DNA from: Escherichia coli
GTDB lineage: Bacteria > Pseudomonadota > Gammaproteobacteria > Enterobacterales > Enterobacteriaceae
Direction: 5' to 3' (one strand)
DNA: 64,000 nt
Assembly: GCF_024502345.1 (NCBI RefSeq)
Contig: NZ_JALDNN010000001.1
The notes beneath the pieces are model-generated. The model was not told the DNA's origin. It saw nothing but the letters and a program-made list of their open reading frames with translations, and did no database searches. The position numbers were made by a program, and so were the translations under genes. Of the stretch, positions 431-43,249 are shown piece after piece (within the stretch, counting starts at the first letter, position 1; every line of letters begins with the position of its first letter).

Positions 431-1015
431 TTAACGGTAATCCAGCGTTACGTTAACGACAGCGTCTGCTTCCCCTGGGGTGATTTCTGATGCTTCAACG
501 GTTGATACGTAGTAAGCGATGAGGTCAACATTGACAATACCATTGGAGTCCGCTGGGATCTGATAAACCGTGTTATCATTCCCCATAGCATTCAGTGGCA
601 TAAGGTTTCCGCTTTCCGCATCGTCAATACGGATACCCACACCTGTTGCCGCTGTGCCAGCAAAAGAGCCCACTTTTGCCAGATTAGGGAAGTTAGGGAC
701 GGTGCCATTATCCCGCGTTTCCAGCCATAAACGGAAAGACGCTTCAACGTTGCCGTTATCGTGCTCCCACCCAGTCACTGGGCAGTTAACTAAAGGAATA
801 GTGAATGGAATTTTTGGGCTACGATCGCCAACAGAACGAAACTGTTCGGCATTATAGTGACCAAGAGCAACTTCAATTTTCTTATCAGAGTCATTGATTT
901 CACAAGCGGATTTTAAAATCTCGCCATCAAAAACTATTTCACCATCGGTTGCAGCGGCATTACCTGCGAAAAGCGCAAGTAAGCCCACAATAGCTGTTTT
1001 TGTAACTTTATTCAT
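431..1015 (-). CDS. yraH: Fimbrial-like adhesin subunit
   Basis: ORF track 194 aa with signal peptide (MNKVTKTAIVGLLALFAGNAAA) and C-terminal fimbrial-subunit pattern; AT-rich upstream region. Confidence 0.85.
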   Translation of the reverse strand: MNKVTKTAIVGLLALFAGNAAATDGEIVFDGEILKSACEINDSDKKIEVALGHYNAEQFRSVGDRSPKIPFTIPLVNCPVTGWEHDNGNVEASFRLWLETRDNGTVPNFPNLAKVGSFAGTAATGVGIRIDDAESGNLMPLNAMGNDNTVYQIPADSNGIVNVDLIAYYVSTVEASEITPGEADAVVNVTLDYR

Positions 1016-1415
1016 TTATAACCTTATCCTTGTAACAAGTACATAATCATATTTAATGTGAATATATGTTCAACATCTTTAAAGATTATACAGGTAGAAA
1101 TATTTCATTGAACATTAAATAGACTAAACTTTAAGATTATATTTATATGCAAATATTTTATGTTTTTATTATATTGATATGAATTTTCTATGTGTTAAAA
1201 AGAGTATAAATGCCTGACTTTGCTGCGCCAGGGGCCGAGTCAGAATACGAGGTGATTTATTAATAGAACAAGTTATATGTATATCTAAAATTAAATTGTT
1301 GAACATAACTCCTTTTGCTATTGGCGTTATGTTCAACCCAGTCAAATGTTATTTAATATAATGCGTGACTGTTGAATAAGTTAATTTAAAAATTTTGAGC
1401 AAATTTTTCATCTGG

Positions 1416-2171
1416 TTAGGTATTAATTAAACAAATAAAGTTACTGTGCAGCCATAAAAACGAAGCCGGGATAGCGGTGGAGACTTTAGCCGTGAGAAAA
1501 CGTTCTGTCGCATCCTGCTTTCCTTCGCCAGTCACCAATAACAAAACCTCGCGGGCATTGAGAATATCCTTCAGGCCTAAGGTGATCCCACGAGTCACGG
1601 GGCGACCCGTGGTTTTTAACATCTCATGTTGCTGTGTTCTGGCATCAAGTTGACTGATATGGCAGGCCGGTTGTAGGCTTTCTCCCGGTTCGTTCAGCCC
1701 AAGATGACCGTTTTTCCCCAACCCGAGAACGCATAAATCCAGACCGCCTTTGCGCGCAATCAGGTTCGTTACCCGTTCGCACTCTGTCTCATTTATCTCT
1801 TCGGAGCGAAAGCTGATGAGCTGGTCTTCACGCAGCCCCAGCGGCTGCACGATATGCTGTTGTAGGAAAGTTTCGCAGGTGCCAGGCATCGTTAATGGCA
1901 GATCCACCCATTCGTCGAGCTTCACGAAGGTGAGCTGGCTGATATCAACCTGCTGCTGGTGGATTTTTTCTACCAGATAATGATACGTCAGTAATGGCGT
2001 GGCTCCGGTCGCCAGGCAAATCACGGCATCCGGTTTGCTACGGATCACAGCCAATAAATATTCGCTGGCTCGTTCACTTAACGCCGTATAGTTTTCAACT
2101 TGCTGAAGGGTTTGCACAGGATGAAATTCCTTAAGTAAAGAGGCACCGCCAGAAGCAGTGCCTCGTTCCAT
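1416..2171 (-). CDS. agaI: Galactosamine-6-phosphate deaminase/isomerase (NagB family)
   Basis: ORF track 251 aa; last gene of the aga cluster by synteny. Confidence 0.9.
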   Translation of the reverse strand: MERGTASGGASLLKEFHPVQTLQQVENYTALSERASEYLLAVIRSKPDAVICLATGATPLLTYHYLVEKIHQQQVDISQLTFVKLDEWVDLPLTMPGTCETFLQQHIVQPLGLREDQLISFRSEEINETECERVTNLIARKGGLDLCVLGLGKNGHLGLNEPGESLQPACHISQLDARTQQHEMLKTTGRPVTRGITLGLKDILNAREVLLLVTGEGKQDATERFLTAKVSTAIPASFLWLHSNFICLINT

Positions 2172-2963
2172 TTACAAAATGCCGAATGCGGAACAAACAA
2201 TAGAGAGCACAAAAGTCACGCCGATTAACAGCACCGGATGCGCTTTTTTCACCCGCAGGAAGTAATACATCAGCATGGTGTAGGCCATCGGTAAAATGTT
2301 CGGGAAGACTTTATCGAAGAAATCCTGTTGCAGCGCGACGCTGTGGGTACTGTCGATGGCAAACGATGTCACCACGTTAATATGCACATACGAAGCGATC
2401 AGCCCGCCGATTACCGTGATCCCGAGGATGGTTGCCGAGCGAGCAATCATCTGCGAGTTCTCTCGCACTTTATCGATCGCCTTCACGCCGACTGAATAAC
2501 CGACGTGGGTCCAGCCGACGCGCAGGAAAAAGATAAGCAGGTAAACGGCGAAAAATAGAATCGGCCCCAGCAGGTTTCCCTGGCTGGCAAATGATGAGCA
2601 AATTCCCGCCATAATCGGCAACAAAGTAAACCAGAAAATCGCATCGCCAATCCCGGCGATTGGGCCAAACAGTGCCACTTTGAGGCCTTTAATGGTGTCG
2701 CGGTTTTCTCCTTTTTCTTCCATCGAAATTAATAACCCCATCAGGAATCCGACCAGATTCGGGTGGGTATTAATAAATTCGAGGTTATCTTTCATCGCCG
2801 CGCTTAAGCCCGGTTTGTCGTCCTTATAAATCTTTTTCAGGATCGGCAACATCGCCCAGGTAAAACCGCCCGCCTGCATCCTTTCGTAGTTAAAGCTCGC
2901 TTGCAGCAGCGACGAACGAAAGCCCAGACGGGTGATATCTTTTTTACTGATTTCAGATCCCAT
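2172..2963 (-). CDS. agaD: PTS galactosamine-specific IID component
   Basis: ORF track frame 2172..3110; chosen start MGSEISKKD gives 263 aa; overlaps agaC by ~11 bp, typical operon coupling. Confidence 0.88.
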   Translation of the reverse strand: MGSEISKKDITRLGFRSSLLQASFNYERMQAGGFTWAMLPILKKIYKDDKPGLSAAMKDNLEFINTHPNLVGFLMGLLISMEEKGENRDTIKGLKVALFGPIAGIGDAIFWFTLLPIMAGICSSFASQGNLLGPILFFAVYLLIFFLRVGWTHVGYSVGVKAIDKVRENSQMIARSATILGITVIGGLIASYVHINVVTSFAIDSTHSVALQQDFFDKVFPNILPMAYTMLMYYFLRVKKAHPVLLIGVTFVLSIVCSAFGIL

Positions 2964-3756
2964 TGCTGTAGTCCTCTTCTTCATTTTTACTGGCAACGGG
3001 CTGCGGTTGCGCTTGCTGCCGGGATTTCGCATTGAAAAACTCATACACCGCAAAGCCTGCGCCCAGTACGGCAACCGGCAACAGGTTGCTGACCTGGATG
3101 TAGCAAACAAACAGGAAACCGGCGATCAGGTAAGGGATATATTGCGCTTTGAACATTACGCGCAGCAGCAAGCCAAAACCAACGGCAGGCAGAATACCGC
3201 CAGCCACTTCAAAGCCGTGGGTCAACCAGGCGGGCATCGCTTTCACCAGCGCCTGCATCGCCCCTTGTGCCAGGTAAGTACAGAGGAAAGCAATCACCGC
3301 ATACGCTGAAGCGACGATGAGCATCGTTGTCCAGTTAAGCCGGGAAAACGCTGCCGTATCCGCCTCTTTCGCGCATTTATCGGCTTTGGTCATAAATAAT
3401 GAGAAAGCGGAATAGAAGAACAGAATGACGTACTGCATTAACAAACTAAACGGCAGGCCAAGACCAATTGCTGTTTTGGCATCAACGCCCGTAGACCATG
3501 CAATGACGGTGGTCATCAGACCCGCCATAATCGGGTTGGGCGGCTGAACACCACCTGCAGGGGTTAATCCGGCGAAAGCCAACTCTGTCAGACCACCGGT
3601 AATTAAGCCAGTCTGAATATCACCGAGAATAGCGCCAGTTAGGGTACAAACGATTATCGGGCGGAATAAAAATAAGGCTTCCAGCCAAAAATCAATCCCC
3701 AGAACGAAAACTAACGCCGCCAGGGATAATCCCTGAAGTAGGGTTATTTCATGCAT
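2953..3756 (-). CDS. agaC: PTS galactosamine-specific IIC component
   Basis: ORF track 267 aa, polytopic membrane protein of the mannose-family PTS. Confidence 0.9.
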   Translation of the reverse strand: MHEITLLQGLSLAALVFVLGIDFWLEALFLFRPIIVCTLTGAILGDIQTGLITGGLTELAFAGLTPAGGVQPPNPIMAGLMTTVIAWSTGVDAKTAIGLGLPFSLLMQYVILFFYSAFSLFMTKADKCAKEADTAAFSRLNWTTMLIVASAYAVIAFLCTYLAQGAMQALVKAMPAWLTHGFEVAGGILPAVGFGLLLRVMFKAQYIPYLIAGFLFVCYIQVSNLLPVAVLGAGFAVYEFFNAKSRQQAQPQPVASKNEEEDYSNGI

Positions 3757-3794
3757 TTTTATTACCTCAAACCAATATTAAGGCGATTTTAGAT

Positions 3795-4271
3795 TTAGTC
3801 AGGGATTTGTTCTTTTTGATCGCCAGGGACGTCCTGAATGAAAACATTCACGCCACGTTGTTTAATAAAACGTAAGTCCGCGAGATCCTGGTCATCGACA
3901 TAAACTTTACTGCTGATTTGCTTTTTCCCTTCCGAGAAATGCATATTGCCGACGTTGATATCTTTCAGGTCAATGCCACCTTCTACCAATTTACGTACCG
4001 TTTGTGGCGTACGGCAAATAAGGAAGATCTTCTGATGCGGTGCAGCTTTGCCGATGACGTTAATGGTTTTTTCGATAGTAAAGAAACGAATGCCAAAGCC
4101 GTAGGTTTCTGCGGTAATACCCATTAATTTCTGTTGAATATCATCGTTAGCGACAACATCATCCACGACTACCAGCAGATTCGCACCGATGGTGGATGTC
4201 CAGGTCACGCCAACCTGACCGTGAACCAGACGGTTATCAATACGGGTTAAGAGAATATTTGGACTGCTCAT
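3795..4271 (-). CDS. agaB: PTS galactosamine-specific IIB component
   Basis: ORF track 158 aa; IIB(Man-type) motif RIDNRLVHGQV. Confidence 0.9.
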   Translation of the reverse strand: MSSPNILLTRIDNRLVHGQVGVTWTSTIGANLLVVVDDVVANDDIQQKLMGITAETYGFGIRFFTIEKTINVIGKAAPHQKIFLICRTPQTVRKLVEGGIDLKDINVGNMHFSEGKKQISSKVYVDDQDLADLRFIKQRGVNVFIQDVPGDQKEQIPD

Positions 4272-38667: not shown

Positions 38668-39654
38668 TTAACCGAAGCGAACATCTCGTCCATGCGGTTC
38701 ATCGAGATCCTGCCACGGACCAATTGAAATAATCCCCGTAGGGTTGATGGTCTTATGACTGCGGAAGTAATGATTACGGATATGATCGAAATTGACTGTT
38801 TCGGCAATTCCCGGCATCTGGTAGATATCACGCAGGAAGCCATACAGATTAAGGTAATCGCTGATGCGGTGCTTATCACACTTGAAGTGGGTCACATACA
38901 CTGGATCAAAACGGACCAGCGTGGTCCACAGGCGAATATCGGCTTCGGTTAGCTGGTTGCCGGTCAGGTAACGATGCTGACCTAAAATCTGTTCCAGTCG
39001 CGCCAGCGATTCAAACACTTTCTCCACCGCTTCGTCGTAGGCTTGCTGGCTGGTGGCAAAACCAGCTTTATACACGCCGTTGTTAACGGTGTCATAAATC
39101 CAGCCGTTAAGTTCGTCAATTTTCGTTTGCAGGGCTGGTGGGTAGTAATCACCAGCTTTCGCGCCCAGCGCATCAAACGCGGTATTAAACATGCGGATGA
39201 TTTCTGCTGATTCGTTGCTGACGATGGTGTGGTTCTTTTTGTCCCACAGCACGGGAACAGTAACTCGTCCGCTGTAGTGTGGATCGGCGTGGAGATAAAG
39301 CTGATACAAAAATTCATGTTGATAGAGCGTGTCTCCGGTTGCTCCCGGAAAACTGTCATCAAAGGTCCAGCCGTTTTCCAGCATCAGCGGGTTCACTACG
39401 GAAACGGAAATAAACGGTTCCAGTCCTTTGAGTTTGCGCATGATCAGCGTGCGGTGCGCCCACGGGCAGGCGAGTGAAACATAGAGATGATAACGATCTT
39501 TCTCTGCGATAAAACCGCCTGTGCCAGTGGGGCCAGGAGCGCCATCGGCAGTGAGCCAGTTACGAAATGCGGAAGCTGAACGTTGAAATTTACCGCCGGT
39601 AGATTTGGTATCGTACCAGGTGTCATGCCAGACGCCGTCAATCAGTTGACCCAT
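38668..39654 (-). CDS. yqjG: Glutathionyl-hydroquinone reductase (Xi-class GST) YqjG
   Basis: ORF track frame 38668..39675; start MGQLIDGVWHDTWYD gives 328 aa. Confidence 0.9.
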   Translation of the reverse strand: MGQLIDGVWHDTWYDTKSTGGKFQRSASAFRNWLTADGAPGPTGTGGFIAEKDRYHLYVSLACPWAHRTLIMRKLKGLEPFISVSVVNPLMLENGWTFDDSFPGATGDTLYQHEFLYQLYLHADPHYSGRVTVPVLWDKKNHTIVSNESAEIIRMFNTAFDALGAKAGDYYPPALQTKIDELNGWIYDTVNNGVYKAGFATSQQAYDEAVEKVFESLARLEQILGQHRYLTGNQLTEADIRLWTTLVRFDPVYVTHFKCDKHRISDYLNLYGFLRDIYQMPGIAETVNFDHIRNHYFRSHKTINPTGIISIGPWQDLDEPHGRDVRFG

Positions 39655-39723
39655 TTTTCTCTCCTCCAATAGCAAAAACGAGGAGCTTCCTCCTCGTTTT
39701 TTATCGTTAAGTATAGCGCGTGC

Positions 39724-40119
39724 TTACCACTTTTTATTCAGCAGGCGGTCGATGCTATACGCGCCCGGACCGGTAATTGCCAGCAGCAGGAATCCGCCAG
39801 AAATTGTCAGGTTTTTCATGAACATCAGCGAGTTGACGCCTTCAGCAAAGTTGCTGTGAAATAAAAATGCCGTCAGCAGCGTAAAGCCCGCAGTAAACAG
39901 GGCTGTGGTGCGAGTCAGGAAACCGAACAGGATTGCCAGACCACCACCAAACTCAAGCAGAATCACCAGCGGCAGCATAAAACCCGGGACGCCCATCGCT
40001 TCCATATATTGTTGGGTACCCGCGTAACCAGTAATTTTTCCCCAGCCTGCGGTAATAAACAGAATCGGCATTAAAATGCGCGCTACCAGTACACCAACAT
40101 CTTCTAATTTTTTCATCAT
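39724..40119 (-). CDS. yqjF: DoxX-family inner-membrane protein YqjF
   Basis: ORF track 131 aa, four predicted TM segments. Confidence 0.88.
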   Translation of the reverse strand: MMKKLEDVGVLVARILMPILFITAGWGKITGYAGTQQYMEAMGVPGFMLPLVILLEFGGGLAILFGFLTRTTALFTAGFTLLTAFLFHSNFAEGVNSLMFMKNLTISGGFLLLAITGPGAYSIDRLLNKKW

Positions 40120-40300
40120 ACTCTCACTGCGCCACTCAGGCTGCTGATTGTTTTTTTGTGCAAGGGCGCGGTATTAGCGTCGTTGTTGTCGATGGAGAGA
40201 ATCATAAACGTGGTGAATGATGATTGTTAGCAAGGAAAACTGTCAAAAATCTTCAAAAAATTTGATGGGTAAGGCCGGAATGGCTCCGGCCAGAGGGAAG

Positions 40301-40600
40301 TTAACCGCGAAGCTGTTGCTGCTTGAGGGTCGTTTTAACCAGACGCCAGGCGCTCCATACGCCAAAACCGCGTCTGGCCCAGCGGACCAGCATATTAGGA
40401 TGGCGAATCGTCCAGATCGCCATCACGCTACTGCCAACCAGCGCCCAGGAGCGCAGACTTAGCAGCATATTCCAGCGACGATCGTAAGCGCCTGTTGCCT
40501 CCAGCCATTCACGACGACTGGCGGAAAGATCCAGCCGTTGTTGCTGGATCTGGCTAAGCAGTTGCGCCTTACGTCGTTCACGTTCGACTTTACTGCTCAC
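40301..40600 (-). CDS. yqjK: Small protein YqjK
   Basis: ORF track frame 40301..40702; likely GTG start giving 99 aa (VSSKVERERRKAQLL...), overlapping the yqjE stop. Confidence 0.7.
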   Translation of the reverse strand: MSSKVERERRKAQLLSQIQQQRLDLSASRREWLEATGAYDRRWNMLLSLRSWALVGSSVMAIWTIRHPNMLVRWARRGFGVWSAWRLVKTTLKQQQLRG

Positions 40601-40994
40601 GGGACTCCTCCTCGAGCAGTTGCCGATCGTTTGCCAGCTCATGGCGTGTATGGCGCAGCAAGGTGGATTTACGCGATTTACGTAACGTCCAGATACCGCC
40701 AATCAGTGCCAGTAGCAGCAACACCACGGTGGTGGCAATCATCGCATTCAGGCGATATTGCGGATCAACCGCCCAAATAATTAGCACCATCAGGCTCATA
40801 AGACCAAATGCAGCGAAAAGCATCGTCAGGCCCAGCATCAGTAAAAGTTGAAAGAGATTAGCTTTTTCCTCTTCCAGCTCCACCACCGCCAGCCGCAGAC
40901 GTGTTTCCACCATTTCAACCATGATGGAAACAATTCGCTGCCCGATGCCCAGAACGCTTTTACCGGGCCCTTGCGCGTGATGAGTGTCCGCCAT
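40590..40994 (-). CDS. yqjE: Inner-membrane protein YqjE
   Basis: ORF track frame 40590..41063; start MADTHHAQGPGKS gives 134 aa. Confidence 0.8.
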   Translation of the reverse strand: MADTHHAQGPGKSVLGIGQRIVSIMVEMVETRLRLAVVELEEEKANLFQLLLMLGLTMLFAAFGLMSLMVLIIWAVDPQYRLNAMIATTVVLLLLALIGGIWTLRKSRKSTLLRHTRHELANDRQLLEEESREQ

Positions 40995-40996
40995 AA

Positions 40997-41302
40997 TTAA
41001 CGACGCGACAGCAGAACGCCGAGCACTACACCGATTGCAGCGCCAATTCCCACGCCGGTCCACGGATTTTCACGCACATACTCATCAGCACGCGCCGCCG
41101 CGACACGGGTTTGTTTGGCGATGGCATCACCGGTTTCACCCAGGCGATAACGGCTCTGTTTCAGTGCCTGCTCCGCTTTGCTACGAATCTTACTCAACTC
41201 TTCTTTCGACTTCTCGCCAGATGAGCTAAGCACCTCTTCCAGCGTATCGGAAAGGGATTTCAACTCAGCACGCAGATGTTCCGTAGTGTGTTCTTTCGAC
41301 AT
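40997..41302 (-). CDS. yqjD: Ribosome-associated membrane-anchored protein YqjD (ElaB/YgaM family)
   Basis: ORF track 101 aa with C-terminal TM anchor. Confidence 0.88.
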   Translation of the reverse strand: MSKEHTTEHLRAELKSLSDTLEEVLSSSGEKSKEELSKIRSKAEQALKQSRYRLGETGDAIAKQTRVAAARADEYVRENPWTGVGIGAAIGVVLGVLLSRR

Positions 41303-41339
41303 AGTTTTCTCCAGGTGAGTAAGTAGTGACTATTGTGAG

Positions 41340-41708
41340 TTAGTAGTCGCGCGCTTCCAGCTTTTTCAGCTCTTCCTGCGCTTCTGCCAGTTTCCGTTCG
41401 CGTTTGGCAATCTTATCGGCATCGCCTTTTTGCTTCGCCTCGGCTAAATCTTGCTGGCGTTCCGCCACCTCATCTTTCTGCTTTGCGATTTTCTTGTGAT
41501 GATCGGCACGCAGCTGGCTATCTGAACAGTTGGCCCGGACTTCACTCAGGGCTTTATTCAGACCGTCAATACGATTCTGGTTTTGGTGTTTTTCGGCATA
41601 GCTGATCTCCTTAAGGATATTTTGCTCCTTTTCCTGACACAGGGTAGTGGCATAACTACCGGCACTAAGAGCAAAGAGAGAAACAGCTAAAGCGATGCGG
41701 TATTTCAT
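41340..41708 (-). CDS. yqjC: Periplasmic protein YqjC (signal peptide, charged coiled-coil-like)
   Basis: ORF track frame 41340..41723; start MKYRIALAVSLFALSAGSYA. Confidence 0.82.
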   Translation of the reverse strand: MKYRIALAVSLFALSAGSYATTLCQEKEQNILKEISYAEKHQNQNRIDGLNKALSEVRANCSDSQLRADHHKKIAKQKDEVAERQQDLAEAKQKGDADKIAKRERKLAEAQEELKKLEARDY

Positions 41709-41854
41709 TCTTGAACCTTCCATTGTGATTCGGACCTATTACAAAGGAACGATTGTCCAGACAACGAAGCGGTAGTGTTAACCACCGCCTCATTAATCAT
41801 AGACAGTTACGGTGAAATCACCAAAGTGAGTGATATGTTTCGGATAACAGGAAG

Positions 41855-42238
41855 TTATCCGAAGCGATGAGAGTTATCCCGTAACCGGGTCAGCCACTGC
41901 ATAGCCTGACTGTTATTGTCCTGCTGCGCAATGATGTAGCCATGGGGCAATGTTCTGTCGAGGACCGCTTTTGCGGCGGCGCTCTGGTCGCTGGAGTCAA
42001 ATGTAATTAACAGAGTGTCGTTTTTGGGGGTGATACTTTTGAAAGGAATGCCATGAGCGTCAAGGTGATGCCAGATCGAAAAACCGTCTGGCATCGTTGT
42101 GCCTTGATGAACGGCACGAATCGCCAGCGTAGACTCTTGCTGGCGAACCGCGGTCCAGGCCAGCAACAGCGTGCCGACCAGAAGTAAAACAGTGCCGGAC
42201 CAGGCTAGCTGGCGAAGCGACATGCGAGGTATTTGCAT
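41855..42238 (-). CDS. mzrA: Modulator of EnvZ/OmpR, MzrA
   Basis: ORF track 127 aa, N-terminal TM anchor. Confidence 0.88.
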
Positions 42239-42241
42239 CCC

Positions 42242-42904
42242 TTACCCCCGATTTCCATATTTCTTTTTCCATAACACGACCAGAGAACCTGCCAGGCCAA
42301 ACACCAGCAGCACCACCGGGAGCAGCATCAGGCATGACATCAGCTGGTCCTCGTACTTTAAAAATACCGGCGTTTTGCCGAGCATGTAACCCAGAGTTGT
42401 CAGGATCAATACCCACAGCAGACCGCTCATCCAGTTGAAAAACTGAAAGCGCGTGTTATTCAGCCCTGATAACCCGGCAATCGTCGGCAGCAGTGTTCTG
42501 ACAAACGCAATAAAGCGACCAATTAACAGCGCCGATAAACCGTGTTTATGAAAAAGATGGTGTGCGCGTTGATGATAATGCGCGGGTAAATGAGATAGCC
42601 AGTTTTGTACGGTGCGGGTATTGCCCAGCCATCGCCCCTGAATATAGCTGACCCAGCAGCCGAGGCTGGCGGCAACGGTCAGCAGCAGAATCGTTTGCGG
42701 ATAGCCCATCGCGCCTTTCGCAATCAACACGCCGACCAATACCAGTAAACTGTCGCCCGGTAAAAAGGCCGCCGGAAGCAAGCCGTTTTCAAGGAACAAA
42801 ATTACAAACAAGACAAAATACAACATGCCAATCATCGATGGATTGGCCAGGGTTTCAAAATCCTGCGCCCACAGGGCTTGCAGCAATTGGGTCAAAAGTT
42901 CCAT
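42242..42904 (-). CDS. yqjA: DedA-family inner-membrane protein YqjA
   Basis: ORF track 220 aa. Confidence 0.9.
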
Positions 42905-43249
42905 TCATTATTCCTGGTGAATCGGTTAACGCCACGCTGGTTTTAAAAAGATGCACTACCGCAATGTTATTGCTGTTTTGGTATGTTCTGCGGGTTTGAT
43001 ACATCAACACAGCCTGAACTATTCCCTGTTAAATCGTGAGATAAGAAAGCATTCAAAAACATAAATTCAAATTGAATCTAATTGTAACAAAGGTCAACGT
43101 TGTTCGTTATCAAAATTACATGTCCGTGGAGTCTGATTTTGCTGAATGCAGGGGAGGGTGGCGAGAGGATTTACACAGGCTGACACTTTATACTTTTCGC
43201 TTACCGACGAGACAAACAGGCGCGTCGCAGCGCCTGTCGGACAGGTATT

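Follow-up and report, generated by a model that had tools for sequence, protein, structure and literature searches.

The closest described system to the locus considered here is the yqjCDEK operon of Escherichia coli K-12. The locus carries the genes yqjD, yqjE, and yqjK and occupies positions 40,301 to 41,302 of a 64,000-nucleotide stretch of an E. coli genome (assembly GCF_024502345.1, contig NZ_JALDNN010000001.1); this whole stretch is called the window below. The K-12 operon is sigma-S dependent and is transcribed from two promoters, one upstream of yqjC and one inside yqjC (PMC10746276). CsrA represses the translation of yqjC and yqjD in exponential growth (PMC10746276), and the operon is induced by osmotic stress and in stationary phase (bioRxiv 10.1101/2025.05.13.653802).

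The best characterized product of the operon is YqjD, an inner-membrane protein that is inserted by its C-terminal glycine-zipper helix and dimerizes through the same helix (bioRxiv 10.1101/2024.08.16.608256). The cytoplasmic N-terminus of YqjD lies near the 50S tunnel exit, where it contacts uL22, uL23, uL24, and uL29, and the protein has been described as a hibernation factor that inactivates ribosomes and tethers them to the membrane (bioRxiv 10.1101/2024.08.16.608256). Deletion of yqjD has been reported in the literature to slow the recovery from stationary phase. YqjE and YqjK have been described as predicted interacting inner-membrane proteins (PMC10746276).

The locus is the distal part, yqjDEK, of this already described operon. 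The original prediction, made from the sequence of the window, had recorded the cluster as known and poorly understood in function, and the literature agrees (PMC10746276, bioRxiv 10.1101/2024.08.16.608256, PMC11302039). We propose, with moderate confidence, that yqjDEK belong to a sigma-S stress operon in which YqjD silences ribosomes and YqjE and YqjK are its translationally coupled membrane partners.

Gene layout

Three consecutive minus-strand genes fill positions 40301-41302 exactly, as seen from the list of open reading frames (ORFs) and the reverse-strand sequence. The gene coordinates below were taken from the ORF listing and checked by script.

41302-40997, minus strand: yqjD, 101 amino acids (aa), ATG at 41302 and TAA at 40999-40997
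40994-40590, minus strand: yqjE, 134 aa, ATG at 40994 and TAA at 40592-40590
40600-40301, minus strand: yqjK, 99 aa, GTG at 40600-40598 and TAA at 40303-40301
40613-40605, minus strand: Shine-Dalgarno sequence of yqjK, GAGGAGGAG, upstream of the GTG and within the last codons of yqjE (..LLEEES..)

In the window, 2 nucleotides (nt) separate the yqjD stop codon from the yqjE ATG (TAAttATG), and the start of yqjK sits inside yqjE, giving an 11-nt overlap of these two genes (GTGAGCAGTAA). In a genome that is 99.8% identical, RefSeq annotates yqjK, yqjE, yqjD, and yqjC with identical boundaries and places the group between yqjF and yqjG on one side and mzrA and yqjA on the other. The three small genes with overlapping or adjacent stop and start codons that had been predicted are thus confirmed at exact coordinates by the ORFs and by RefSeq, and their predicted identities and order agree with the Pfam matches and the RefSeq annotation. 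The prediction is refined in that the transcription unit also takes in the upstream gene yqjC, so that the unit is yqjCDEK, with its genes on the minus strand. We take the K-12 counterparts to be b3098 (yqjD), b3099 (yqjE), and b3100 (yqjK). Short gaps and overlaps between genes on the same strand are commonplace in bacterial operons, and the arrangement here, though real, does not stand out statistically.

Conservation of the operon

The region 40100-41800 is found at an identity of at least 95% in 5422 of 5426 complete E. coli genomes. A further 80 loci were fetched from a one-genome-per-species collection with a single YqjE protein as the query, a procedure that reaches close relatives only; all 80 are Enterobacteriaceae by title or by near-identity, and they represent many genera. 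Counts over 81 loci comprise these 80 and the E. coli record L001. The refined counts over 80 loci comprise L001 and the 79 fetched loci with an intact yqjK, and L026 is left out of them.

The order and strand of yqjC-yqjD-yqjE-yqjK are identical in all 80 fetched loci, and yqjC lies upstream of yqjD in 81 of 81. Of the 81 loci, 54 have 2 nt between the yqjD stop and the yqjE ATG, 25 have 1 nt, and the remaining 2 have a distance of -1 nt. Among the 80 loci of the refined counts, 44 show a 4-nt overlap of yqjE and yqjK, 12 an overlap of 11 nt, 11 one of 8 nt, and 10 one of 1 nt; in the other 3 the two genes are separated by 2 nt, giving a full range of -11 to +2 nt. The 11-nt overlap of the window occurs in loci titled Escherichia, Citrobacter amalonaticus, C. 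sedlakii, Citrobacter sp., and Intestinirhabdus. Across genera, then, the genes share one strand and their stop and start codons overlap or lie a few nt apart, and the predicted tightly coupled module, with its 2-nt gap and 11-nt overlap in the window, has tight junctions in every locus compared.

Variation in yqjD, yqjE, and yqjK is mostly confined to the third codon position, where the entropy is 1.18-1.23 bits versus 0.14-0.62 bits at positions 1 and 2. The median ratio of nonsynonymous to synonymous substitution rates (dN/dS) against E. coli is also low, at 0.091 for yqjD, 0.067 for yqjE, 0.123 for yqjK, and 0.078 for yqjC (80 loci). On both grounds, yqjC, yqjD, yqjE, and yqjK are functional protein-coding genes in their annotated frames.

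More distant relatives were reached by looking up the contigs of six YqjK homologues with 26-33% identity. The trio of a DUF883 gene, a Phage_holin_3_6 gene, and yqjK is kept in 6 of 7 distant loci. The trio order is seen in L082, L083, L085, and L086-88, with yqjD-to-yqjE gaps of 9, 9, -1, and 1 nt and yqjE/yqjK overlaps of 11, 8, 1, and 4 nt, respectively. L084 is truncated, and its upstream partial ORF ends as a DUF883 glycine-zipper tail. In all 80 fetched and all 7 distant loci, yqjK is coupled to, and lies directly 3' of, a gene for a PF07332 protein. This sampling agrees with the published finding that yqjE-like and yqjK-like genes are syntenic with DUF883 genes throughout the family (Njenga et al., bioRxiv 10.1101/2024.08.16.608256).

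In L086 (positions 510-3901 of a metagenome contig, Logan SRR29289981), the trio stands among genes of the envelope- and osmotic-stress type. An OmpA-family protein, a DUF3309 protein, and a 97-aa ORF are encoded upstream, and a BON-domain protein is encoded downstream. This neighborhood fits a stress-regulon context.

Probable coupled translation of yqjE and yqjK

A Shine-Dalgarno-like motif was defined as GGAG, GAGG, or AGGA located 4-18 nt upstream of the start codon. Such a 4-mer precedes yqjE in none of the 80 loci (window junction 40992-41010; likewise in L002-L081), and it precedes yqjD in 80 of 80 and yqjK in 79 of 80, counts that come from phylogenetically related loci whose upstream regions are constrained by coding sequence. 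The Shine-Dalgarno sequence of yqjK is encoded by the conserved C-terminus of YqjE, LLEE(D/E).

The lack of a separate Shine-Dalgarno sequence for yqjE, together with a start codon placed -1 to 2 nt from the yqjD stop, makes it probable that yqjE is translated by re-initiation after yqjD. The sequence evidence suggests two modes of coupling, termination and re-initiation after yqjD for yqjE and a Shine-Dalgarno-driven overlapping start for yqjK, and it further suggests that the re-initiation of yqjE is obligatory. Ribosomes terminating on yqjD would re-initiate at yqjE 1-2 nt further on. For yqjK, initiation would take place at the GTG in the final codons of yqjE, driven by a strong Shine-Dalgarno sequence that the C-terminal Glu/Asp codons of yqjE supply. 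If translation is linked in this way, the cell would produce YqjD, YqjE, and YqjK jointly, in one location and with their amounts tied to each other.

The tail-anchored ribosome factor YqjD

YqjD matches the Pfam family DUF883 (PF05957; 49.5 bits, cut-off 25.4, E = 4e-13) and the DUF883_C glycine zipper (PF19029; 57 bits, cut-off 27, E = 1.4e-15). Its sole hydrophobic segment spans residues 81-99 of 101 and is followed only by RR, as expected of a tail anchor. The conserved proline P80 is present just before the tail helix (..RENPWTG..), and this residue has been found to be important in YqjD (bioRxiv 10.1101/2024.08.16.608256).

The original prediction had described yqjD as an ElaB-like ribosome-associated anchor. 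The likeness stands insofar as YqjD is a paralogue of ElaB. It is not ElaB itself, as its score against the NCBIfam ElaB equivalog NF007709 is 92.5 bits versus a cut-off of 139, and "anchor" understates the function of a protein that inhibits translation at the 50S tunnel exit.

Among the PADLOC profiles, YqjD has a weak hit to LeoC (21 bits, E = 7.4e-5, covering positions 104-201 of the 207 in the profile; window 41000-41302), which probably reflects shared coiled-coil and transmembrane character and not homology to a defense protein. Sequence searches of the PDB with YqjD, YqjE, and YqjK returned nothing meaningful. One match of YqjD, to an engineered cytochrome c555 trimer (25.7 bits), contains no significant stretch and was disregarded.

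YqjE and YqjK as proposed membrane partners of YqjD

YqjE matches PF07332 (Phage_holin_3_6) with 75.8 bits (cut-off 28.4, E = 3.5e-21) and is predicted to form a long amphipathic helix followed by two strong transmembrane segments at residues 58-76 and 84-102. YqjK matches PF13997 with 88.3 bits (cut-off 28.1, E = 4.5e-25) and contains only a marginally hydrophobic segment, residues 51-65, with basic flanks on both sides. The AlphaFold2 model of YqjK, calculated from 54 diverse sequences, has a predicted local distance difference test score (pLDDT) of 93. It consists of helices 2-66 and 68-98 with a kink at H67-P68, in the conserved R-H-P, and agrees with an older ab initio model. A Foldseek search of the PDB with this confident model gave no match. 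Some long fusion proteins containing the YqjK region (P0216, P0232, P0189, and P0185) are error-ridden frameshifted translations and were rejected as natural fusions.

We propose that YqjE, a two-helix hairpin behind an amphipathic helix, and YqjK, a kinked two-helix protein, are partners of YqjD in the membrane and that they may influence its oligomerization, its localization, or its activity.

Several observations weigh against this proposal. Purified YqjD inhibits translation in vitro on its own (bioRxiv 10.1101/2024.08.16.608256), so YqjE and YqjK are not needed for its core activity. The paralogues ElaB and YgaM also function without such neighbors (bioRxiv 10.1101/2024.08.16.608256). An AlphaFold2 model of a YqjE-linker-YqjK fusion, calculated from an operon-paired alignment of 29 rows that are mostly >73% identical, reached a predicted template modeling score (pTM) of 0.31 and a pLDDT of 66 and thus gave no confident complex, which does not in itself count against one. 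Genome-wide start-site mapping predicts extra transcription starts upstream of yqjE and yqjK (PMC10746276), and expression may therefore not be purely coupled. In the distant locus L089 (GCA_002933345.1, contig PDKR01000003.1, 2292-3291; locus 25% GC), the DedA gene yqjA is followed by a spacer and then by yqjE and yqjK, which overlap by 1 nt. The 314-nt spacer between yqjA and yqjE has a GC content of 12%; it lacks any ORF, and tblastn detected no remnant of yqjD, yqjC, or mzrA in it. The pair can therefore persist without an adjacent yqjD. Finally, in the related operon of Pseudomonas aeruginosa, which is envelope-stress responsive, the growth, biofilm, and tobramycin phenotypes map to the third gene, PA3042, and not to the homologue of YqjD (PMC11302039).

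Other readings of YqjE and YqjK

The main rival to a partnership with YqjD is that YqjE and YqjK form an autonomous envelope- or membrane-stress module without YqjD or a role at the ribosome, for example in membrane integrity or in ion and charge homeostasis, and share an operon with yqjD only through the sigma-S and envelope-stress regulon. The position of the pair directly after a DedA gene in L089, the P. aeruginosa phenotypes, and the activity of YqjD in vitro without YqjE or YqjK all favor it, as do the envelope- and osmotic-stress genes (OmpA, BON, and DUF3309) that neighbor the trio in another lineage. Against it stand the synteny throughout the DUF883 family (Njenga et al., bioRxiv 10.1101/2024.08.16.608256), the DUF883 gene found immediately upstream in 80 of 80 fetched and 6 of 7 distant loci with junctions of at most 9 nt, and the synthesis of yqjE, which appears to be tied to yqjD by the lack of its own Shine-Dalgarno sequence. 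We regard such a module as a possible, though improbable, explanation, and prefer to see YqjE and YqjK as membrane partners of YqjD.

A more elaborate form of the partnership can be imagined, which we put forward tentatively and consider unlikely as a whole. Here, YqjE and YqjK would be an ancient self-sufficient core, an inner-membrane complex that docks YqjD, gates its dimerization through the transmembrane helix, and thereby switches the inactivation of ribosomes. Re-initiation would set the ratio of receptor to client, and the occurrence of yqjE-yqjK without an adjacent yqjD would reflect a second membrane function that is independent of YqjD.

It is very unlikely that YqjE is a holin-like or toxin-like membrane permeabilizer, with YqjK or YqjD as its regulator or antidote, in a chromosomal growth-arrest or lysis cassette. 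The idea draws on the name of its Pfam family, Phage_holin_3_6, and on its RefSeq name, "phage holin family protein", as well as on its small size, its two transmembrane helices, and its charged C-terminus. Overproduction of YqjE also arrests growth and raises persistence (PMC4738310), whereas the YqjE-like PA3041 is not toxic (PMC11302039). YqjE matches no PHROG family, and relatives were found in only 2 of 50,697 phage records, a Salmonella chromosomal contig and an unannotated 1.9-kb fragment, neither of them a complete phage genome. The gene neighbors of yqjE are yqjC, yqjD, yqjK, and yqjF, with no endolysin or lysis gene close by. The locus is core and not mobile, being present in nearly all E. 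coli genomes and in all 80 loci, and the selection on yqjE is strongly purifying. Toxicity on overproduction is in any case common for small membrane proteins. The evidence at hand argues that YqjE should not be treated as a holin and that its database name is misleading. PADLOC gave no match for YqjE, YqjK, or YqjC, and the locus, being core, does not qualify as a toxin-antitoxin or anti-phage defense system.

The start codon of yqjK

Public protein collections differ in the length of YqjK, holding versions of 113, 123, and 124 aa beside the 99-aa form (P0001, P0002, P0008-P0010, and others), which makes the question of its start a legitimate one. The longer versions arise because, in Escherichia, the yqjK reading frame continues without a stop for some way 5' of the GTG (window 40600-40702, minus strand). 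In the alignment of the 80 loci, the start codons coincide to within one codon; they are GTG in 46, ATG in 33, and TTG in 1. An in-frame stop lies at most 3 codons upstream of this start in 51 of the 80 loci, and an in-frame stop rules out the 113-aa form in 57. An exhaustive HMMER scan yielded only 133 cluster representatives in total; in the 53 distant full-length homologues taken from it (25-61% identity), the N-termini align within 1-4 residues of the E. coli GTG.

A start farther upstream, at the in-frame ATG 14 codons up (40642; 113 aa) or in a 123/124-aa form, is extremely improbable, since the 34 open codons upstream of the GTG in E. coli and the longer database proteins that speak for it are set against the stops just counted, a stop located 11 codons before the yqjK start of the Escherichia sp. 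locus L002, an ATG at the canonical start codon in E. albertii (L010), the canonical beginning of the distant homologues, and the lack of a Shine-Dalgarno sequence before the -14 ATG, compared with GAGGAGGAG before the GTG. Judging by these comparative data, the longer versions appear to be an annotation inconsistency and not real isoforms. The GTG start, which had been predicted as probable and is annotated by RefSeq, is well supported on comparative grounds by its conservation in the 80 loci and in the distant homologues.

Some individual loci show peculiarities in yqjK. In L026 (Trabulsiella odontotermitis strain 01, about 3395-3640), a 62-nt deletion relative to L036, from the same species, removes the 5' part of yqjK. 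The GTG-initiated frame there ends after a few codons, and a downstream in-frame ATG could yield a YqjK that lacks about 21 N-terminal residues. In L043 (Citrobacter amalonaticus AUH_CA_2023_1), the yqjK ORF is 123 aa long and has a C-terminal extension (..MALRLSGLRTRPLPTSPDGASLIRL) that looks like a translation of intergenic DNA. The related L030 carries, 3' of the yqjK stop, the sequence GCCGGATAAGGCGTAGCCGCCATCCGGC, which resembles by eye a repeat of the repetitive extragenic palindromic (REP) type.

Promoters, CsrA sites, and the end of the operon

The regulatory elements published for the K-12 operon, together with its first gene and a putative 3' end, can be placed in the window as follows.

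41340-41708, minus strand: yqjC, 122 aa, DUF1090 (PF06476, E = 3.3e-34, well over the curated cut-off; RefSeq), first gene of yqjCDEK
41795-41802, minus strand: sigma-S-type -10 element CTATGATT of the yqjCDEK promoter, the -10 assignment being read from the sequence
41403-41415, minus strand: internal sigma-S promoter within yqjC, giving yqjDEK, with a putative -10-like TAAGAT at 41415-41410
41721-41719, minus strand: CsrA site BS1 (GGA), overlapping the yqjC Shine-Dalgarno sequence
41376-41374, minus strand: CsrA site BS2 (GGA), at -74 from the yqjD ATG
41358-41356, minus strand: CsrA site BS3 (GGA), at -56 from the yqjD ATG
41312-41310, minus strand: CsrA site BS4 (GGA), at -10, overlapping the yqjD Shine-Dalgarno sequence
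40291-40273, minus strand: GC-rich stem-loop GGCCGGA-gccat-TCCGGCC, 9 nt after the yqjK stop, with a 7-base-pair stem by folding

The transcription start of yqjCDEK is the A at 41790, which lies at -82 from the yqjC ATG and agrees with the published sigma-S-dependent start, "a single A" at -82 of yqjC (PMC10746276). The internal start of yqjDEK has been mapped as "CCA directly upstream of the AA" (PMC10746276), corresponding in the window to the CCAAA at 41407-41403, -105 to -101 from the yqjD ATG. The GGA positions of the window fit the published BS1 and the A(-15)G mutant (PMC10746276). BS2 and BS3 have been reported between -50 and -80 of yqjD, and BS4 on the Shine-Dalgarno sequence (PMC10746276). 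A further GGA at 41395-41393 (-93) is the motif that was found unprotected in the same study (PMC10746276). An ATG at 41723, 5 codons before the annotated yqjC start, could lengthen the yqjC ORF (window 41706-41723, minus strand) to 127 aa from the annotated 122 aa. This upstream ATG is that of the AUGGA of BS1, the site that overlaps the Shine-Dalgarno sequence of the annotated start.

The stem-loop after yqjK is probably the 3' end of the operon, as judged from its position there in E. coli, a place occupied in most genera by stem-loops of unrelated sequence. It forms a canonical terminator in loci titled Enterobacter and Cedecea and in one Kosakonia locus (L017). In E. coli, the T run starts about 15 nt past the stem, as in a weak or non-canonical terminator; the 71-nt region after yqjK is not significantly stable (z = -1.1), and a consensus terminator scan did not call the hairpin. 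An Rfam scan of 39600-42400 at E <= 1 found no RNA family. A sigma-70 consensus promoter scan found no more sites than in shuffled sequence and missed the published sigma-S promoters.

A near-consensus sigma-70-like promoter (TTGACA, 18 nt, CATCAT) is seen at 40201-40246 on the minus strand, between yqjK and yqjF, together with a weaker overlapping match. Both lie just upstream of the DoxX gene yqjF (start at 40119). The yqjF promoter is presumably the YhaJ-activated promoter used in biosensors for dinitrotoluene and trinitrotoluene (TNT). Farther away, RefSeq annotates a small protein gene of 27 codons, yqiM, just upstream of yqjA in L001 (5328-5411); by transfer, its position in the window would be about 42927-43010 on the minus strand, outside 40301-41302.

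Comparison with known systems

The locus is textbook-annotated, and its confirmation changes nothing in that respect. Its interest lies in the fact that YqjE and YqjK are kept beside a ribosome-hibernation factor across Proteobacteria. Functional tests can make use of three features: a yqjE without its own ribosome-binding site, a fixed yqjK start with its Shine-Dalgarno sequence within yqjE, and one AT-rich genome in which yqjE-yqjK is kept without yqjD as the adjacent gene.

The superfamily III holins (PF07332, "Putative Actinobacterial Holin-X") resemble YqjE in their profile match, small size, and two transmembrane helices. Unlike them, YqjE is found in no true phage genome, PHROG family, or lysis cassette, and is encoded by a core chromosomal gene under purifying selection.

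The P. aeruginosa operon PA3040-PA3042 is similar to yqjDEK in having three genes with gaps of <15 bp that encode a DUF883 protein, a YqjE-like protein, and a small third protein (PMC11302039). It is induced in stationary phase as well as by envelope stress, and PA3040, like PA3041, is not toxic when overproduced (PMC11302039). PA3042, which carries the phenotypes, has no recognized domain and occurs only in P. aeruginosa and P. paraeruginosa (PMC11302039).

The paralogues ElaB and YgaM share with YqjD the DUF883 N-domain, the C-terminal glycine-zipper tail anchor, expression in stationary phase, and the binding or inactivation of ribosomes. Unlike ElaB and YgaM, the YqjD lineage alone has yqjE and yqjK as neighbors (Njenga et al., bioRxiv 10.1101/2024.08.16.608256).

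The yqjCDEK operon of E. coli K-12 (Pourciau et al. 2023, PMC10746276; Njenga et al. 2024, bioRxiv 10.1101/2024.08.16.608256) is the same locus as the one in the window, with identical gene order, lengths, and junctions, and the transcription starts and CsrA GGA sites published for it coincide exactly with positions in the window. With an identity of 99.8% to the best-matching RefSeq genomes, the window may differ from K-12 itself; otherwise, nothing of substance differs.

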